A DNA stretch of 63,132 nucleotides, the filler included, from Chrysochromulina tobinii (lineage: Eukaryota), in NCBI GenBank assembly GCA_001275005.1. It is 8 parts of 8 records of this genome, joined end to end, with 100 filler letters (N's around TTAATTAATTAA, not from the genome) between each part and the next. Parts side by side here need not be neighbours in the genome. Positions count along the whole stretch, not along the records: positions 56,815 to 63,132 come from JWZX01001412.1; 7 more parts are not named here. One strand, given 5' to 3'. The translations under genes were made by a program, and so were the position numbers. The number at the start of each line of letters is the position of its first letter. Positions within the stretch are counted from its first letter, which is position 1. The notes under the pieces were generated by a model, which saw nothing but the letters and a program-made list of their open reading frames with translations, made no database searches and was not told where the DNA came from. Positions 1,979 through 63,132 of this stretch are shown here, one piece after another.

Positions 1979-4900
1979 TCACCTGTGCAAGCCTGGGGCC
2001 CGCGGGGCCTGGGCCTTCCTCCATCTCCGCAGGATGTCAACCATGAGCACGGTGATAATGGGAGATACCGACGCGCAGGCGAGCATGCCGAAGCCCTCCT
2101 CGGCGCCGACCGCCGTGGAGAAGCCGATGCCAGTGGAGAGCACAAATGGCACCGTCACGGGGCCCGTGGTCACCCCGGCCGAGTCCCAGGCGATGGTCGC
2201 CATGTCCTCGCTGGAGAAGTAGGTGAGGACGAGCGCGGCAAAATATTTGCCCAGGATGAACCCGATGAGGCTCGCCCCAAAAAGGATCTTTGTCGACCCG
2301 GCCGACATGCCGGCAGCGACGCCCACGCACACGGAGTAGACCAGGAGCTTGCGGGTAAAGGCTCCCTTGGACAGCTGCTCCACAGTCTTGCCCAGCACGT
2401 TGAGGGCCGGCTCGGCGCGGGTGGCGAGGAAGCCGAGGATGAAGACGGTGGCGATGGTGAGCGCGACCCCCCCGCCGTAGGGGTAGAAGGGTGAGGACGG
2501 CTCGCCGGACACCGACATGAAGGACGCGGGGAGGAGGAGGCCCACCTGGTCCCTGCAACGCGCGCAATCGAGACAGATTTAGAGAGGGGATGCGTGGGCG
2601 CACGGGGCGAGGCGAAGGGGGTTAGGCGATTTCAAGGGTGCGGTCAGGAGGTTGATGAAAATGCGGGACGGAGAGGGGCCCTGCGCTTTGGGACGGAGGA
2701 TGTGTCGGCACGAGTGGGGAGGAGGTCAACATGCTGATTGGGGTGGGCTGGAATCACAACGCCGCCGATCCCCTTGATAAGACTCACCCGATGGCCGTGA
2801 ACCCGTACGTGAGGCCGAGGTTGAACAGCACCATGCCGATCTGCCCCATGAAGATGCCGAAGAGGAGAGGGCCGGCGTTCGCCCAGGAGGACTGGGCGGG
2901 CTTTCCGTTGGGAGGGGCTAGTGAGCTGTCGTCAGGGGAGAGGGGTGCGGTGGAAGAGGACGCAGCTGCTGCTGCTGACGCCGAGCTCTCCTGCCCACCG
3001 GCCGATCCGGCGGAGGGGCCGGGCATCTCCGTCGGAGGCTCAACCTCGCCTCCTTCCTCCGAGGTGCCGGGCTTCTCGAGAGCCGCCTGCACCTCGGCAT
3101 CGCAGATGGTGATGGAGTGGCGGCTAGGTTGGCGGCTGAGGGGGGGGAGCTGCACCTTCTTGTTGAGGGCTCGTGTGTCGGCGTCCTCCGCCGCCACGAC
3201 AGGGGTGGCCGCGGCGCTGGAGGACGTGTCTCCTCCTGCATCCTCCCGCTTGGCTGGTGCAATGTCGACGACCGGATATATAGACAGGTGCGGGATGGGC
3301 TCCCGGATGATGAAGAGCACGAGGAAAACCATGGCGAAGTTGAGGGGCAGGATGGCGCGGACGGCGAAGACGACCTCGCGCAGGGGGCTGATCTCGAGCG
3401 GCGAATCCTCTGCGACTGCCGCCTCGGGCCGGTTGACGATGTCGTCGTGGGTGTAGATGAAGGAGAGGACGATGCCCAGGAGCTGCACCGCGAGGACGGG
3501 TAAGAGGGAGGCGAGCGTGACGATGCCGAAGCCGTCGAGCGCGGGCTGCTGCCCGCCCCCCTGGACGGCCTGCTGGAGCATCAGGCTGGCGAGCCTCTTC
3601 TCCTTGGACGTCTTCATCGCGCCGATTCCGAGTGCAAGGAGGACGGGCACGGACACGGGGCCCGTCGTCACGGCGCCGCAATCCCACGCAAGCCCGAGGA
3701 TGGGCTTGAGCTCCGGGTTGCCCCACTGCATGTAGCAGCTGCAGATGAGGCAGGGGGTGATGGTGGCCAAGATGACCTTCTTCATGTTCCACTCGTTCTG
3801 GAAGCGCAGGATCCCAACGATGGCTGCAACGCCCACGCCGAGCCCGATGGCGAAGATGAGGGGCTCGAGGAAGTCGTTGAGCACGATGTACAGGTAGGGC
3901 GTCTTGCTTCGTTCGACGAGGCGCGCCAGGGGCCGCAGGGAGGCCAGGGCGGGCTCAGCGTAGGTGCAGAGGATGCCGAGGCACATGGCGATGAAGAGCG
4001 TCGCAGCCTGGGGCAGCTTGCGGGGCGTCTCGCGGCCGATGAGCTCCGCCAGGGGCATGACGCAGATGCGCAGGGAATCGGTGAAGAGCGTGAGCCCCAC
4101 GATGGCGCACAGCATGCCCCCGACCAGCTCCCCCGGGGCGTTGGGTGCGCGCCCGAAGAAGATAGCGATCGTGAGGATGAGCAGGAGGGTGATGGGCACG
4201 ACAGCCAGCGTCTGCTCCTGCAGGTTCACGGCGAGGAGGCGGGCGTACGCGGCAGCCCCGGTCGAGTAGCCCCGCTTGAGGAGGGCCACCTCCAACGAGT
4301 CAACCCAGGGCATGCCGTTTGATCTAGTCGCCGCGAGCACGGGCGCGGCAGATGCAGCTGCGCTTTTCGCATGATCCATAGCCTCATTCATCACGCCAGC
4401 GACGTCATCGTTGCGGAGCCAGAAGGCGAGGCGGATCAGCCATGCGGGGAGGAGGATCATGTCGATGAACAAAGTCGTGACGATGACCATGTTCGACGAG
4501 CCGCGCCAGTTGACGAAGCGCGTGACCTCGAAGATGAAGTCGAGCACGCTGAAGAAGACGATGGCGCCGGCGAGCAGCCCGAGCTCCCTGGGAGCTTCCT
4601 TGCTGGCGTGAGTGAGCTTCGCCGCACAGCCGAGCGCGACGGCGATAAAGATGTCATCCATCGCAAAGAGCCAGAGCGAACGGGACTGCACGATCAGGTA
4701 GGCCATCTCGAGGGACTGCGCCGCGGAGATCGTGCCTCGGCGGGCGGGGTTGGCGAGCGCGTTGTCCGGGGGCGAGGCGAGCACTCCCCACGAACTCGTA
4801 ATCCATTCCGTCGTCTGCGACGTGCCAATCTCTGAGACGAACTCGACGAGGGTCAGCGCGGCGGCGAAGACCCACGCGAAGACGATGGTGCTCCCGGGGC

Positions 4901-11813: not shown

Positions 11814-12110
11814 CGCCACAGCAGAGAGGGAAATTTCTTCCATTGGACAGTTGCTGCGCGAGTTTGGTCGCGTGTGTGCCCGCTGTAAGCCGCCACGCGG
11901 GCCGCCGAGATGCGAAAGGCAACGGACCAAGAGCACGTGCTTGCACCTCGTGAGTCTTGCCTCGCCCCCTTCTCGCCACTAGGTTCTGGTGATCTCAAAG
12001 CTGTAACGTCCAATAAACAAAGCTGCAGCGGGCAGGGGCACTAGTCCGCAGCCGGCGTAACGAGCATGATTTCCGTCGCGCGTACGACGACTCGTCCGAC
12101 ATGAGAATGT

Positions 12111-14419
12111 GTGCGGTCAGTGAGCCCGTGCGATTTAATCCATTATTTGGCCAAAGGCCTCACGATGCTTCAGGTACCCCGCGTGCTCAGGCGGCACTGT
12201 GGCACGGACGGATCGCGGGTCGAAGTACGGAATGCGCGGGGGGCAGTGGAGGTTCGAGTCGCGTGCGGAGCATACAGCGGAGTACAGCCCCTCGAGCAAG
12301 GCGAACAAGAAGACGTGGAGGAGTGGAATGCCCGCAGGATGGCAGCTGGCATGATCGGCATGCGCCTCCCAGCGCACCTGGAAGTGATCGACGCAGAACT
12401 CGCGGGCATGCTCATGGTCATAAGAGAGGCAGCCGCGACCACAGACGCCCACGAGCGTAGACTCCTGATCATGAGCGACTGCCTCAGCGCCCTGCGACTC
12501 GTCGAGAGAGCATGGCGAGCAAAACACAGACGTGAGTATGCAGGTAGCACACGCGGCGCGATACTCGAAGCGATATGCACCGCACGGGAGCAAATAGACA
12601 TAGCCGTGTTCATGTACGTCCCAGCCCACCGCGGGCTCGCACCAAATGCGGTAGCAGATGCAGTTGCCAAAGCCTACACACAAGCACCGTTCCCCGCAAC
12701 CGGGGTGAGCGAGATGATTCAGGAGGGAATCCGATACCGACCCATGGTACACGAGGTGCAAGTCACAATGGGCGCAAGGCACGCGTGGGAAATCTGGGAC
12801 GAACGGGCGCACACTGCGATGAAAGAAGCCACCGGATGGCACATAAGGCGCCAGATGGCCAGCAGGCAGCACGGCCGCGCTGTCCGCAACGACTGCCTCG
12901 GACCTGCGTGGGAGGCGCGACGGGAAGACCGGTGGGAGGACGTGTGGCAACGCACAGGTGCCCGCAGCAGACACGGCGGCAAAGGGAGCGGTGGCGGGAA
13001 TGCGCCAGAGGATGGCGACGAGCAAGGCGACGGCGATGCCTCACCACCGGACGACAACCCAAATACCGGCGGCGGACAACGCGAGCTAGAACGAGTGGGC
13101 ACCGTGATGGCTGCACGCGCGGGTGACCTATGGGACGCCACGCACGGAGGCACATGGGCACGAGATGAGAAGAGGGATAGAGAACACCATCAGAGACGCC
13201 GAGCATGGCGACAAGGGCGGCAGGGGTGCCCGGCATGCTGTAGCAGACAAAGAGGATGGCGATGGATCACGGGGCATGGGGGCGAGCGGGAATGGAGAGG
13301 GCCACGGGGCGAGCAGGTGACAGACGCACGCATGGCCACGTCACAGCACATCATGTGCGGCGAATGTGACGCCGTCCGGGAGGCGGAAGAACAACCCACC
13401 AAACACCTTGTAGAAGCCGTACGCCACGTGACCGCAGTCCTGGTACGCAACGAGAAGCAGCGCCATCGGAACAATCGGGAGCGCGGGGGACAGGACGCAG
13501 AGGGCAGCTGCGTGGGGGCATGGACGGTAGCACGCCACGCGGAACGCGCGATCGGACAAACAGAAGCGGGCAGAGCAGGCCCATACGCAGTGGAAGCAAT
13601 GCGCCGCCTCGTCGCCGGGGACGTACCACCGCCCAACGGAAAGGGAATCGGCAAAGCAGGGACGCACCACGTTGTGCACGCCATCCGGCGAGTTCAGGCA
13701 GCGGCAGCGCTCGTACGGCGCACCTGGAAAAAGGCGGCAGAAACGGAAACGGCGCAGCGCGCGGCAGAGGAGGCGCACCTCCCGTGGGTCAGCACTGCAT
13801 GGGGCGTCTGGGGGCGGTGCCCGAACCTACGTATCGGAGAGGACGGTGAGCCGACAGATGCAGCACTCGAGGCGGCGGCGCGAGTAGCGGAGCAAACGGC
13901 GGCGGAAGAAAGGGCGGCGGCAAAACGGAGACGCATCAGCCCGGAAAAGAACCCAAGAGAGAGGCGCCGCGCACCGGAGGCCAGGCGTGAAGCAAGGGGC
14001 GACAGGCAGGGGTGGACAATGACGCGCGCGGTCGCAGAGTGGAAGTGGCAGCAGACGAAAGAACGTATACGCGAACTCGAGGAGCGCGCAGCGTCGGGCA
14101 AGGGAACGGAGGCGGAAGCGAGGGAAATAGAGGCGATGACGGCGAGGGTGACGGCGTACGAGGCAAGCAAAGGGGGCCACCGAGCCACCCAAGCACAAGC
14201 GAACGATGCGACACGAGACACCACAACCAAAGATACGTCACAGACAGCGCCGCCGCAAGCAAACCCCACGGACGGAGAACCGGCGGCCACAGCACCGACG
14301 CCAACGGCACCAGCAGGCAAGGAAGAACCCTCGAGCGACGAAGAAAGCGAACACGACCAGGAATCGGGAGACGAGAGCACCGAAGAAGCGAGAATCGCAA
14401 TACCGCACCACACGCGCGT
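12111..14419 (+). mobile_element. Non-LTR retrotransposon fragment: RNase H plus Cys/His motif, apparently 5'-truncated
   Basis: RNase HI motifs TDGS, AELAG, IMSDCLSAL, YVPAHRG, NAVADAVAK; then CPAC...HIMCGEC; purine-rich coding strand; same layout as the element at 56815-63132. Confidence 0.75.
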
Positions 14420-56814: not shown

Positions 56815-59800
56815 ATGTAGGGAATGGCCAGGGAGACACCATCGCGCCCATGCGGAGCATGATCCCCCTTGCCATCGAAACACGAGCGGTGGAATGGCTG
56901 GTTGCAGGATTCCAGTTCGTGGCTCCACAGTCGAAGTCAGGTCACGGGGTCCGCCGCACACGCACCCCACAGGGGTGGTTCGCCGACGACGGCGCCTTCG
57001 TGGTCGACTCCCTCCGCACCCTCCAACAGGCGTTTACCGTGGGATCTGCTATGGCGCGCGTGCTCGGTTTCACGGTCGGCATCGATGTGGACGTCCGCGG
57101 CGGTGCGCCATCCGCCGGCGTCGGCCAGGAAATGTCTGCGCAGCGTGCCCCCGAGCCTGGCGAGGCGCCTGCCGTAAGTACGACCCTCTCGTTCCCATAC
57201 CGGGGCATCCGCGCCCTCCGGATCGTCGGGCATGCGGTATCGGTCGGCGAGGGCGTCCACGGCTCCGCTGCCTGTGTCGCTCGCGCGCGTGCGAACATTA
57301 GCGAGCTGAAGGTATAGCTGCCACGCTTCGATGATGCCTTCCTCGGTGAGCGAATCTCGCATCCACGTTGGGTTCCATGCGAGCGGAACGCGCGCGTCCT
57401 TGTTGGGTCGCCAACCCCACCGCCAGAACTCCTTGGCCACCCGGCACGCTGTGGCGACGTGGGCCGGCGCGGTTTCGGGCATGTTGAGCGCGCGGTCTAT
57501 TTCGACTACGAGCGCCGCCGCCGCGTGTGGCCAGGTCATTGCCATGCCGAGGCCGCGCGGGCGCGGCGCGTGCGCCAGCCATCTGGACGTGCGCTCGCCC
57601 GCGTGCCCCATGCGCGCGAGCCCTCGGCGTTTCGCCACGTCAATCCGTTCGCAGGCCTTTTCCCCGACGGGAAAGGTCGCCCCATAGTAAGCGACGACCG
57701 TGGTGGTCGCAGCGTCGACTGTGTCCACATACTCTTCCGCTGTGAGGATGCCGAGACGGGAGAGCGCGCTCGCGATGCCGCTGCAGCGGTTCGTCACCAC
57801 CTGCCGCGCCGTCGTCCAGTCGGCTATGGGCGTCTGACGTATCCCGAGGTGTTTGTAGAATCCCTGGACTCGAGGCACGGCTCTGCCGTCGATGAGCCGT
57901 ATGGTGACGTCGTCCCCCACCTCCGTCCACGCCCCATTCCGCCATTCACTCCCCATCCACCCCGTCTTGTCGCCGGTGGGTGCGCCTTTGGCCTCGGGGA
58001 ATACCTAGGCCGGGGAGGCCGCATCATCGGCGGACGCAGAGTCGGCGCGAAGCTCACCCCGGCGGAATCTCGGGAGTACCGGACGCTCCTGCAGCAATTC
58101 CACGGGGACGAGACAGCATGGGCGCAGTCACAACAACACGGCGGGCGCGAACGGCCGCTCGAGATACGCGCCGTCGACGTTCTTGGCGCCAAGGGCGTCT
58201 GTGACGGACCAGGCGCCACGGACGGCACCGACTACCTCCTCGAGTACAGCGACGGTACGACAAGGTGGGGACGCCGCCCAGGAGCCATGGCACCAGGGCT
58301 TCCGGCCAAGCTACGCGCAGCGCGCGCGGCCTATCTGGCGGAGGGAGAACGCACTGTCGAGCAATACGCCGCGGACGTACTTGACGACGCACCTGGCGCC
58401 CTATGGCTCGCCACCACGGCACCCCTGGCGGTCGGGGCACGCCCCCCCCGGGACGTCATCACGGACGCCGGCCGGGAGATGGGCGATCGAACTCGGATCT
58501 TCGCTGAGTTCGCTGTGCGGGAAGCGCGAATCGCGCCGCGGACCCCGGTCGCGCAAGCCCTGGGCCAGGCAGCGACCAGGGCCTACGCCCTCGCCGAGGA
58601 GGCAGACCGCGCGGTGACGCCCGAAAAGACGTCGCCACAAGAGCAAGCCGCCCTCGCGGAGCGGGCGGAGACGGCGTGGGCTTGGGCAGCGGCGGTGGAT
58701 ACCGAGGCCACGACGAGGGCGACACCAACCAAAGAACGCGCGGAGGCGCGGCGCACCGCGGACCGGGCCTACGCGGAGTGGCTCACGGCCAAGGCGCGAG
58801 AAGCGACCGGCACAATGGCGGGGGCGCTCGCGGAGTGGGCACAGGCGCTACCGGAATACAGCCTTGCTGCAGCCGGCAATGCCGACGGCGCACATGCAGC
58901 GGCGGAGGCGGATGCTCGATCCCCAGCCAAGCGGTTCCGACCCAGCGCACGCCCGGGGTGCTTCTTCGGCTCTCCCATGCCCGCGGGCGACGATGGCAAG
59001 AGGCGCACGCGGCCGTCCCTGGCGCTCACCGATGTGCAGCGCAGCGCCGCGGCTACGCTACCCCATGCAGTACCAGTGCCCGACGCGCGAGACATGCACC
59101 GAGACCCGAGGGTAGCGTGGGACGGCGGGCCGTGGCGCATGTGGTCCGATGCGCCACGGCGGCTGGGGTGGAAACTCACGGCGGAGCAACACGCCCATAT
59201 ACAGCGACAGAGACTGGCCGCCACGGCCCGCCGGGCGGCAGCACGCTCGGCGCGCCCTCACCAAGAGACAGACACGCTATCGGGCGTGCGGGCGGACGAA
59301 ACGGCAGCGGAAACAGACGAGACCGGCACCCGGCCCTACGGCGCCAACCGCGCCCGCCAGCATCTGGCAGAAGCCCTGGCCGCTGAGGAGCGGGCCGACA
59401 CGGCGGCGGCGAGGGCATCCGAGGGCGACGGGTGGCTGGGCGACTGGAGCGCGGAGGACCTCGCCGCAGCCGAGGACGAGGCCACGGGCGCACGAGAGGG
59501 CGAGGAGGCCGTGGAACCGTGGGACGCCATAGAGGCCATGGAAGCCTACGATGACGCGGGGATTCTGGCGGACGCCTACCTCCGACAAGACACGACCCAC
59601 GCGGCCACTCAGGAGTGCGCGGGGGGCCTGACAGCCACACAAAGGAGGCTCATGGAGGGAAACCACGTACTTGCACTGGAGGGCAGGCAACGGCGCGAAG
59701 AGGAACAGTCCGCGCGCACCGCCGCCGAGCTTGCCGCCGCCGCGACGGCCGCGGACAAGGAATGGCGACTTCGGTGCGACGAGGCCACCGCGACACGGAG

Positions 59801-62800
59801 GTCGGCGGATGCACGCGTGATGGCCATGGAGAACAACGTACCGATAGCGTGGGAAACGGTATATCGGGATGCCAACGCCAAGGCAGCCGAACGCACCGCG
59901 GCGGAGCAACGCAAATCCGTGGCATTGGACGCCGAGCGCGCGGACCGAGAGGCAAGCGCCATCCGCGCGCGCGCCACGGCGACCAGCCTCACCAGGGCCC
60001 GGGCGGCACTCGCTCGGATCAAGCTGGAACTCGGAGACCAAGCGAGCGTCACCGACGCGGAACGCGACGCCCTCGCTCAGGAGGAGCGGGACGAGGCGCA
60101 GGCACACGCGGCCGCCCAGGCGGCACAAACGGCCCAGGCGGCCCACGACGACGCAGCGCGCACAGCACTAGCCTCGGCGGCGGCGGCGGCGGAAAGGCTC
60201 CACACCGCACAGGAGGCAATCGCGGAGTCGCTGCACGCCCTTGCGGGAGGGGATGCGCGCACGAGACAATCCACACAACAGGCGGACGAGGCGAAGATAG
60301 AGGAAGACCGCTATGCCAACGTGGAATACTGGGACACGCTCACCGCGGAACAGAGAGTGGCGATCCTCGCCAGCCCGACGCTGCGGCTCTGCGTACGGCA
60401 CCGCGACATGGAACAAGCCGAGCCGCGACGATCGACAGATAGCCGCATCGATATCAGCATGGAGCCCAAGGAACGCCGGAACATAAGCACTGAGGAAACC
60501 AAACACATCGCCGCCATCGGGCTTGCCATCGAGCACGCGTACGATATCCAATACGCGTACGCGGTCGACGGCAGCAAGGATGAAGCGGAAGCGTGGGGCG
60601 ACGGCGCAACAGGGGAACGAGCGGCGGCATGGGGCGCGTGGGATGGCATCACGGCCTACGGGGGGGCGCTCCCGCCGGATACGGGACAACCAAGAGGCCG
60701 AACTTTATGCCATCGAACGCATCCTCGCGCGACATGAGCGGGGCGACCGGATCCTACTCATGTGCGACTGCCAAGCGGCACTCACGACGGTGGACGGTAC
60801 ATGGCAGAGCGGACGGGTGGGCACGGGCAGCCCCGCGGCGGGACGGACGGGAGGACTACTGGTCGAGGCGATCACGCGGCACCGACTCAGGATCGAGAGC
60901 CGGACGGACGACAGCCAGCCGCGCGGGTGCGTCTGCTTCCTGTGGGTCAAGGCCCACGGCGGAGGCATCGTGCCAAACGCTTACGCCGACGCGATTGCTA
61001 AATCCTGCCTGACGGCGGACGTGGATTATGCCAACGTGGACGCGCCATACCTGGCTCTCCCCCGGGCGTGCCTATACGCAACCACGCCCACCCCACGTGA
61101 TGATACGTGGGAACTCGATGGCGACCAATACTCCTGCATCGCGGCGGACAAGTCGCTGCGACGCATTATCATCGACGGTATCACACGCCACGCCCTCGAT
61201 CGCCTACCGAAACCGACCCAGGAGGGCTGCGACGCGCGCATCGTCGGTGAAGTGACTCACATGCGGGGACGTCCGGAGGGCGCGGCGCCAGGCGCCCCGC
61301 CGCGTCGTAGCGTGACAGCGCCGACCGCCACCGGCGGAGCTTTGCGATTGCGCTCTAACGACCTCCGTCAACACGGCGCGGCCTGCCCGCTGTGCCTCAC
61401 ACCGGGGCCGCTGGAAGGGGACCACACCATGCGATGCACTGCACTCTCCAGAGCGCTTCGCGAGGCAGCAATGGCCAAGGTAACCGCAGCACTCGACGCA
61501 GCCGCGAGCGCACTGCCCTCGGGCGCTCTCTGCGCGCCCGCGGAGAACACTATGCAGGCGTGGAAACTCGCAGCTCGCCGAGCCGGGCAACACGGCGCAA
61601 TAGCAGCCCTGGGACCGACGCCGGACGCTCACCACCCGCTCAAGCCGACATCCGCGCGCGAATGGGCGCATAGGGGGTGGAAAACTAAAGCAGACGAGTA
61701 CGCGCTCGACCTAGGTGAAGGCGCAGCAAGGCCCGACAAACAGCTCGCGATGTGGTGTGCCATAGCCGTATGCAGCGCGCACGCGGCTGCCATTCAAGCT
61801 GCCGACGCCGTGGGCGCCACGGCGGAGGTGGCGAGCGCTTGCACCGCGGCGATACAAAAAATAGAAGAGGGTCCGCTGGGGACGGCGAGTAGAGCAATAG
61901 GCCGCGTGGCGCTGAACGAGGAGTCCGGGGCGCCCGACGACAGTGGCATCATATATCAAACCCACGACGAGGGCGGCATCGACTCGATATGCATACGCTT
62001 TACCCAGCTCCAGCCACACGCCCAAGGGGCGCATCTGCGCGAATGGTCGGAACGCAGATCATGGCTACCGTCTGCACGCGCGCACACCGGCAAGCGCACG
62101 TGGTCGGCCCATACACACCGAGGGTTCTGCTCCGAGGGCGGTGCCGCAGGACGCAAGGTGGAACACTCGGTGGCCGTCGACCCCCTCGACGCCGTATACT
62201 CCATCACGGCGCCAGCGACATGGCCTTGGCGGGTGGAATACGAAATTCACGGACACGACACAGCGCGCCCGGACGGGACACCGGGGCAGCGGGTGCAAAT
62301 CAGCGTCCGCCTCGGGTACGCGGACGGCGCGCCCAAGGCGCGCGTCAGCGCACGTCACGTGCGGACGGACGGCCGCCGGCACCGGGGCGGAGACACGGCG
62401 ATTAACACGGAGGTGGAGCTCGCGGGGGATAAGCAGGGACTGGGACTGCGGGCCATGTTTTGGGAAATGGCGTACGGGGCCCACGCGGAAGAGCACGGAG
62501 CACAGGCCGCAGTACGACGTGCGACAGCGGCTGCCGCCTTGCGCTGCCAGGGGGGCCCAGAAGGTGCGGCCTGGCGCTCTCTGCGCAGCGTCATGGGGGG
62601 GGAATTACCCCCTCCCACCCCTCGCGAACGATTGGAATCACACCTAGCGAAACGAGCGGTAGGAGACGCCGCCGCGACGGAGGCTGAGGCTCGCGTCACG
62701 GCCAAGCACGACGCGGCGCCACCCGGACCGGCCCCGACGCACGTGAGCACCGACGCGGAGCGCCTCGGCGAGGCGGCAGAGGTGCTCGGCGTGCAGATAG

Positions 62801-63132
62801 ACGCGCCCCCCCAAGAAATGCGGCGCGCATACCTGCTAGCGGCCCTTCGCCTGCACCCGGATAAAGGGGGCTCCAACGCCGCCTTCCTCGGCATGCAGGC
62901 AGCCTATCAGCTCTTGGACGGCGCGACGAGCACCGCGCGCCAAGGGGCCACCAGGGAGCTGCGGGACGCAGCGATCGCGGCGGCGCGGACCCGACGCGAC
63001 ACGACGGACTCGGCGACGCAAAGGGCGCTTCGGCTCTCGAGTGAAGTGACTCAGGCGCGGGAGGAGGCGCGCAAACGGGCCGAAGCGGAATGGGTCCCGC
63101 CATGGCGCACCGCCGCACAACACATCCGCACG
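56815..63132 (+). mobile_element. Non-LTR retrotransposon pol ORF: RT (palm end and thumb) - long helical region - RNase H - CxxC..H..C - J-domain; disrupted by an inversion (57085-57982) and a +1 frameshift (~60684); truncated at both ends
   Basis: WFADD on +; DKT, YKHLG and PRGLG on the inverted segment; RNase H AVDGS / AELYAI / MCDCQAAL / WVKAHG / NAYADAIAK; CPLC..DHTMRC; by my hand translation the frame from 60685 is open to the window end. Confidence 0.85.
62761..62925 (+). CDS. DnaJ (J) domain within the retrotransposon ORF
   Basis: RLGEAAEVLGVQIDAPPQEMRRAYLLAALRLHPDKGGSNAAFLGMQAAYQLLDG: canonical LG, RRAY, HPDKGG and F...AY..L pattern. Confidence 0.88.

Follow-up and report, generated by a model that had tools for sequence, protein, structure and literature searches.

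Organization of the locus

The window, by which we mean the whole 63,132-nucleotide stretch of Chrysochromulina tobinii DNA analysed here, is a string of short contigs separated by spacers of the form N44-TTAATTAATTAA-N44, and a non-LTR retrotransposon occupies the last contig (56815-63132) throughout, with both ends cut. The host is a eukaryote whose DNA has a GC content of 61-69%, and the runs containing it come from culture and freshwater. Contigs from RNA runs cover 23 of 30 bins of the stretch, which is no measure of transcription. The features of this element copy are as follows.

56815-57093, plus strand: reverse transcriptase (RT) core, motifs 4-5, with GNGQGD at 56820-56837 and WFADD at 56976-56990; the contig start falls inside RT
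57094-57991, minus strand: inverted segment of ~900 bp with the remaining RT (KTGW, YKHLG, thumb), KTGW and YKHLG lying at 57968-57843
57993-60560, plus strand: long Ala/Glu/Arg-rich linker between RT and RNase H (dN/dS 0.36 across subfamilies)
60561-61005, plus strand: RNase H with its D-E-D-H-D residues, split in this copy by a single additional base near 60684-60686 (dN/dS 0.08)
60688-60714, plus strand: AELYAI motif, in frame 60685-63132
61384-61437, plus strand: zinc knuckle of CCHC type (C-x2-C-x9-H-x3-C), downstream of which neither an RH nor a PD-(D/E)xK motif occurs
61660-62622, plus strand: alpha/beta domain specific to the family, ~320 aa long, in which W/F/G/RK residues are invariant (model pLDDT 81)
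62572-62616, plus strand: WRSLRSVMGGELPPP, in frame 60685-63132
62761-62925, plus strand: J-domain, with HPD at 62854-62862, recognized by Pfam DnaJ, DnaJ sequences of the PDB and fold match
62854-62871, plus strand: HPDKGG, in frame 60685-63132
62926-63132, plus strand: helical region that follows J; the ORF of intact copies runs ~1,070 aa further

As the initial annotation had read it, the frame from 60685 is uninterrupted and stays open to 63132 (816 codons), and all the motifs then listed are located in it, namely AELYAI, CDC, WVKAHG, NAYAD, the zinc knuckle, WRSLRSVMGGELPPP and HPDKGG. Its description as an RT/RNase H polyprotein holds in part: the second half of RNase H is present, and RT lies outside the frame, 3.7 kb upstream, where it is split by the ~900-bp inversion. 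Because the frame holds the second half of RNase H only, its Pfam RNase_H match (E 0.0068) stays under the cut-off. One extra base near 60686 cuts RT off from this frame and puts AVDGS (60561), the first motif of RNase H, in a different one. Within the linker, the motif at 58230-58271 is one that we take to be chromo-like, and a Pfam search with it gave no match.

Comparison with other copies accounts for this damage. Positions 56815-57093 are collinear with the intact ORFs of loci L002-L004 at 99-100%, and 57094-57991 is inverted relative to L002-L004, L006, L007 and others, in an orientation common to L001, so that part of RT is on the minus strand in this copy. The joints at 57093/57991-57993, on opposite strands, are found in 3 runs. 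The base at 60686 is missing from the contigs of three of four runs (depth 220/292, 141/176 and 49/49), and the alignments of L001-L004 to this copy have one gap at the extra base. As assembled, the copy is broken twice, by the inversion and by the extra base, and is an inactivated copy of the element.

A second, more distant non-LTR fragment lies at 12105-14419 of the window, with RNase H and Cys/His motifs and no J-domain, its nearest relatives being proteins P0054 and P0242. The likeness between the two elements that had been noted earlier was not borne out, as GELPPP/GDVPPP scores 0.9 bits and no J match is found there. The fragment is homologous in RNase H alone (BLASTP E 1e-9), and homology outside RNase H was rejected on the BLASTP result, the low motif score and the lack of J.

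Identity and fold of the J-domain

The J-domain proposed at 62761-62925 is indeed intact: Pfam DnaJ matches 62779-62919 above cut-off and the predicted fold agrees. In the HMMER check, aa 699-745 of the 816-codon frame score 28.3 bits (curated cut-off 27.8, E 1.9e-6), and the segment matches solved DnaJ sequences in the PDB with a best E of 3.4e-6. In an AlphaFold model covering the knuckle-to-J region (16 sequences in the alignment, mean pLDDT 82), the modelled J superposes on the J-domain of Sis1 with an rmsd of 1.2 over 50 columns, and a structural search with it returns J-domain-type matches at Z 6-8. The top match is a J-like Tim16 chain (Z 8.1, rmsd 2.3, 60 aligned), true J-domains scoring Z 6-7, about one Z unit lower. 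Helix II of this copy (RAYLLAALRL) is less basic than the canonical one, and Pfam DnaJ scores across relatives are borderline, at 19.9-36 bits. Both hallmarks of J-domain proteins are present, namely the J fold and an HPD placed between its helices II and III, and the short HPDKGG loop is one that T antigens also match in the PDB.

A family of giant retrotransposons

Relatives were collected by searches blind to J, using P0001 aa 1-690, an RT profile and RNase H patterns, J never being part of a query; such searches reach relatives of 25-35% identity and recover proteins in which J occupies the same position. P0001 aa 1-690 found 6 near-length matches, plus 10 long matches at 28-97% identity, 8 of which carry Pfam DnaJ; the remaining two end inside J or right at it, where an inversion has its breakpoint. 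A DNA scan with RNase H patterns identified 18 loci. At eight (L003, L004, L006, L007, L010, L012, L013 and L014), RT, RNase H, the zinc knuckle and HPD lie in a single ORF of up to 5,246 codons. The proposal of a non-LTR family with an HPD J-domain in its RT/RNase H polyprotein stands. At six loci (L001, L002, L008, L009, L015 and L017) the frame with HPD is broken, inverted or partial, or an inversion has taken HPD out of the ORF, and four are too short. A pattern search of viral contigs gave 113 matches, none of them confirmed.

In intact copies the order is a variable N-terminus, APE, RT, a linker of ~900 aa, RNase H, CCHC, the family-specific domain, J, a conserved post-J domain and DUF4326 (up to 48.7 bits), J being placed ~1,900 residues away from RT within uninterrupted frames of 4,000-5,900 codons. 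The longest family protein, P0223, has 5,888 aa; half an RNase H is duplicated near its N-terminus. The catalytic motifs of APE, RT and RNase H are conserved across the family. The ORF stops after DUF4326, and the 3' UTR that follows the stop codon contains tandem repeats of ~80-95 bp and leads to a (GTAACCGG)n tail. This tail occurs at 7 of the 18 loci with six different 3' flanks, and therefore marks independent insertions; most other loci end before or near that point. Across subfamilies, 3' UTR tandem repeats of ~78-140 bp with a conserved core were seen at L007 15346-15837, L001 15894-16197 and L014 15850-16290. No intact 5' end could be recognized at any of the 18 loci, with flanks of up to 10 kb. 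The family consists of non-LTR retrotransposons of 16 kb or longer with a single ORF of more than 5,000 aa.

The N-terminal modules differ from lineage to lineage. That of L002 (~2900-3340) contains a motif that we presume to be that of an OTU-like cysteine protease, with neither Pfam nor PDB support. Other variable modules are sited at P0226 aa ~1070-1150, P0111 aa 336-441 and P0106 aa 1634-1733; a motif that we take to be 2OG-dioxygenase-like is among the variable accessory modules of relatives, which also include a GNAT domain, and another family has DUF4326 ahead of RT. In L007 (18-2600), L006 and P0010 (aa 1-330), host-like ARM-repeat sequence is fused in frame to 5'-truncated element ORFs, the host-like part of P0010 also having a U-box. 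These fusions occur in two subfamilies and are either insertions into ARM genes or misassemblies.

Conservation of the J-domain and selection on it

The J site was scored in a base of 249 proteins, 32 of which have both the preceding and the following domain, groups being defined as a 90% cluster or a locus. HPD is kept in 31 of these 32 proteins, or 13 of 14 groups. RT + RNase H + J is a conserved multicopy architecture found in many copies and distant lineages, a point that the initial annotation had asked to be checked. The family HMMs were built from the same sequences and their scores are therefore circular; the presence of HPD and the Pfam matches are independent of them. Over the region from the zinc knuckle to J, pairwise identity among 13 lineages is 25-66% (median 35%). 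Columns invariant in all 13 number 10 of 55 in J, one of 45 just upstream, none of 14 after it and 25 of 321 in the neighbouring domain. Those of J include H, P, D, the helix II Arg and the helix III Phe.

One protein that spans the site, P0034 (3,688 aa), lacks HPD. In an RT tree of 36 rows (the longer RT-profile relatives and the loci, midpoint-rooted, with 6 family rows too short for J scoring), the family clade has support of 100/100 and P0034 is the sister of the J-bearing P0017 (97/95). As P0034 is nested among J-bearing lineages, its loss of HPD is secondary, and J is therefore dispensable in that lineage. P0034 is otherwise conserved, with APE, RT and RNase H motifs intact. At the position of J (aa ~2857-2935) its helical pattern persists with HPD gone, which makes it a natural control. 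Furthermore, P0111 (3,481 aa), P0137 and P0247 are long relatives without J, so protein size alone does not demand the domain.

Selection was estimated as dN/dS pooled over 11 non-independent pairs, with pS near 0.5-0.6 and dS near saturation. On this measure J, at 0.38, is not under the linkers (0.36-0.46, with 0.36 for the linker between RT and RNase H); RT (0.11) and RNase H (0.08) are both far below it, and the conserved non-catalytic domains on either side of J have 0.25 and 0.27. Invariant residues together with a linker-like dN/dS indicate that selection acts on the signature residues and not on the whole domain.

The linker-like dN/dS would also be expected if J had no role in the element and were a captured host fragment or a chimera made in assembly. 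The contigs are indeed mosaics drawn from copies that are nearly identical, and the whole stretch is not bridged by any one Logan contig. Such an origin is nonetheless very improbable and largely refuted. Other copies and distant lineages retain J: 13 of 14 groups, drawn from different assemblies, have an intact HPD at the same position, and the one lineage without it falls within J-bearing ones (97/95). RT, RNase H and J are found in one ORF in independent assemblies, and at 8 of 18 loci, so J is not a chimera; nor is it a spliced host exon, because it sits in an uninterrupted frame of 4,000-5,900 codons. The J-domain is real and is a property of the element family.

We also consider it unlikely that the J fold is kept for a structural or protein-binding role independent of Hsp70 ATPase stimulation. 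The borderline Pfam scores, the less basic helix II and the rank of the Tim16 chain above true J-domains would suit such a role, but HPD, the Hsp70 contact, is invariant in 13 lineages at ~35% identity, whereas a merely structural J-like domain would be expected to drop it, as P0034 did. The simplest reading of an HPD retained over such distances is, with high probability, that it serves to engage Hsp70.

Relation to known elements

The element is of the non-LTR type on its RT motifs (DK..FFQS / G.GQGD / [WF]FADD / K / YKHLG), its endonuclease and its simple-repeat 3' tail with independent insertion sites. RT is very divergent: RVT_1 matches in intact loci are weak (11-14 bits, E 0.05-0.3, far under the Pfam cut-off), more distant RT-profile matches reach 35.8 bits, and the best retroelement match of the RT profile is an R2 protein, weak (E 0.038) and over motifs 3-6. 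In phmmer searches against the PDB with single RT or whole-protein queries, no RT was found. The APE endonuclease upstream of RT, outside the window, is matched by Exo_endo_phos at 27-32 bits (cut-off 24.5) in L002, L007 and L014, with its QE, GD, DH and H motifs. In sequence-motif tests on 13 proteins, none has the RH(D/N) of a restriction-like endonuclease (REL) after the knuckle, nor a conserved PD or (D/E)xK within 160 aa after it. A structural search with the domain after the knuckle found no nuclease among the matches listed, the best being cystatin-like (Z 5.7, rmsd 4.0, 91 aligned), a weak fold match that is no proof of a new fold; an ESM Atlas search with the region from the zinc knuckle to J gave no usable match.

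APE, RT, RNase H and CCHC in one ORF are the mark of Dualen (RandI) elements and are all found here. According to the accessible part of PMC5029228, the cryptophyte Dualen-1_GCr has 5,287 aa with SET, C48 peptidase, APE, RT, RNase H, CCHC and REL, so that Dualen resembles our family in its single giant ORF of ~5,000 aa or more, its APE-RT-RNase H-CCHC order and its variable N-terminal modules. Unlike Dualen, the family has after the knuckle a family-specific domain, J, a further domain and DUF4326, and because no conserved REL motif is found there it is not filed as Dualen. On sequence motifs, the family is not a canonical Dualen.

Ambal, Proto, I and Tad1 are APE-only, RNase H-bearing LINE clades. 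They share with the family APE, RT and RNase H without REL and a tandem-repeat 3' tail; the family differs in an ORF several times longer and an RT far below the RVT_1 cut-off. To our knowledge, no J-domain occurs in these four clades.

Long-term retention of a host-derived domain in a LINE has a parallel in SymbioLINE-Dnmt, which, in the accessible part of PMC5890265, has a captured methyltransferase in ORF1 with Ka/Ks <0.2; the cargo of our family differs in being a putative chaperone-recruiting module in the RT polyprotein, with a Ka/Ks of 0.38 for J. Other selfish elements encoding an HPD J-domain are the polyomaviruses, with their T antigens, and phage RB43, with Rki (PMC3486835, in its accessible part). 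In T antigen, J is fused to a replication protein; in the family it is internal, not N-terminal, lies in a retrotransposon and is known from sequence. In the literature searched, no J-domain in a retrotransposon was found, though Repbase or supplements may already hold one: the main texts of PMC6431247, PMC5890265, PMC5203782, PMC12477816 and PMC9503650 do not contain 'DnaJ', and in PMC9940879 and PMC9998398 it occurs in an unrelated context. The architecture is conserved and apparently has not been described before within this known kind of element.

Size-clustered rearrangements between copies

Near-identical copies were observed to differ by clean inversions and deletions, with sizes clustered at ~545-556, ~722-740 and ~900 bp, or about 3, 4 and 5 times 182. 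L009 and L010 have no mismatch in 10,527 bases, yet three inversions, of 725, 724-726 and 735 bp, set them apart; L001 and L002, with a common 3' flank, are three inversions and one 734-bp deletion apart, and L015 differs from L004 by one inversion and three deletions. The rearrangements lie at the following places.

Window: 57094-57991
L001: 12371-13098 and 14021-14760
L009: 3505-4229, 9794-10517 and 10881-11615
L002: 9302/9303
L015

Junctions are exact in 12 of 13 tested events, with 0-2 bases of ambiguity and without microhomology. The inversions are reciprocal, and seven have both junctions at identical coordinates. Several junctions recur in 2-4 runs at depths of 30-90. The 16 sizes collected (12 near 730, three near 550 and one near 900) fit multiples of 182 best, with a mean cosine of 0.98; this set omits joints of 89, 1,222 and 1,642 bp, several of <120 bp in low-complexity DNA and those of >5 kb with short sides. 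As one cluster dominates the set, the ~182-bp periodicity of event sizes is no more than suggestive. Neither host nor element DNA has a ~182-bp period in the autocorrelation of CG, GC and AT, and no in-frame deletions of ~243 aa were found among members of host-gene clusters, which is a weak test. Our guess at the origin of these events is that nucleosome linkers are cut bluntly and rejoined exactly; the available part of PMC9246332 describes linker-confined methylation in Emiliania. The size-clustered blunt events may indicate an undescribed mutational or anti-transposon process in the host.

Possible function of the J-domain

From what is known of such families, the element would move by target-primed reverse transcription, in which APE would nick, RT would copy from the 3' tail and RNase H would clear the RNA. 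J would bring Hsp70 of the host to the protein-RNA particle that the element itself forms and, being tethered, would stimulate ATP hydrolysis by Hsp70 beside the unusually large polyprotein. Hsp70 would then fold or activate the particle in cis, as a counterpart of free Hsp40/Hsc70 acting on the hepadnaviral RT. The chances are about even that J acts in cis, bringing Hsp70 to the particle for folding or activation. For the hepadnaviral RT, the accessible text of PMC2094093 indicates that the Hsp70 system alone suffices for activation. Against action in cis stand the ~1,900 residues that separate J from RT, the linker-like dN/dS of J, the loss of HPD in P0034 and the long relatives that have no J.

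It is also possible, as a more tentative proposal, that J is functional but directs Hsp70 at a host complex (chromatin, silencing or stress response) that a neighbouring module binds and that is then dismantled. Polyomavirus T antigens do direct Hsp70 at host complexes and take them apart, and it is these antigens that the HPDKGG loop also matches. This host-directed action would further suit the two conserved non-catalytic domains that flank J (dN/dS 0.25 and 0.27), the DUF4326 downstream of it and the N-terminal modules that vary between lineages. There is also the precedent of phage Rki, a J-protein whose role is not that of a general co-chaperone but the stabilisation of sigma32 (PMC3486835, in part). 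DUF4326 has been proposed, in the accessible part of PMC9503650, to act on ADP-ribose derivatives or signals in virus-host conflict, and as cargo it is compatible with a counter-defence toolkit. Against a host target, the chromo-, Tudor- and DEK-like likenesses are without Pfam support and no host partner stands out as a candidate.

Taken together, the sequences make it somewhat probable that these elements form an undescribed and ancient clade of giant LINEs (ORFs of 5,100-5,900 aa, with APE but lacking REL) and are the first retrotransposons to have a functional Hsp70 co-chaperone built in, aimed at their own RT particle or at host defence complexes.

Significance

For hepadnaviruses it is established that the reverse transcriptase needs chaperones, which there work in trans. 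With a J tethered to a retrotransposon, the action of Hsp70 on a LINE particle would become accessible through a single point mutation (HPD>QPD), and P0034 offers a natural HPD-less lineage for comparison. The family adds a very divergent RT clade with ORFs among the longest of LINEs. If J acts as proposed, the use of J-domains by selfish elements would extend from viruses and phages to transposons, and the built-in Hsp70 co-chaperone would represent a convergence on the strategy of the polyomavirus T antigen.
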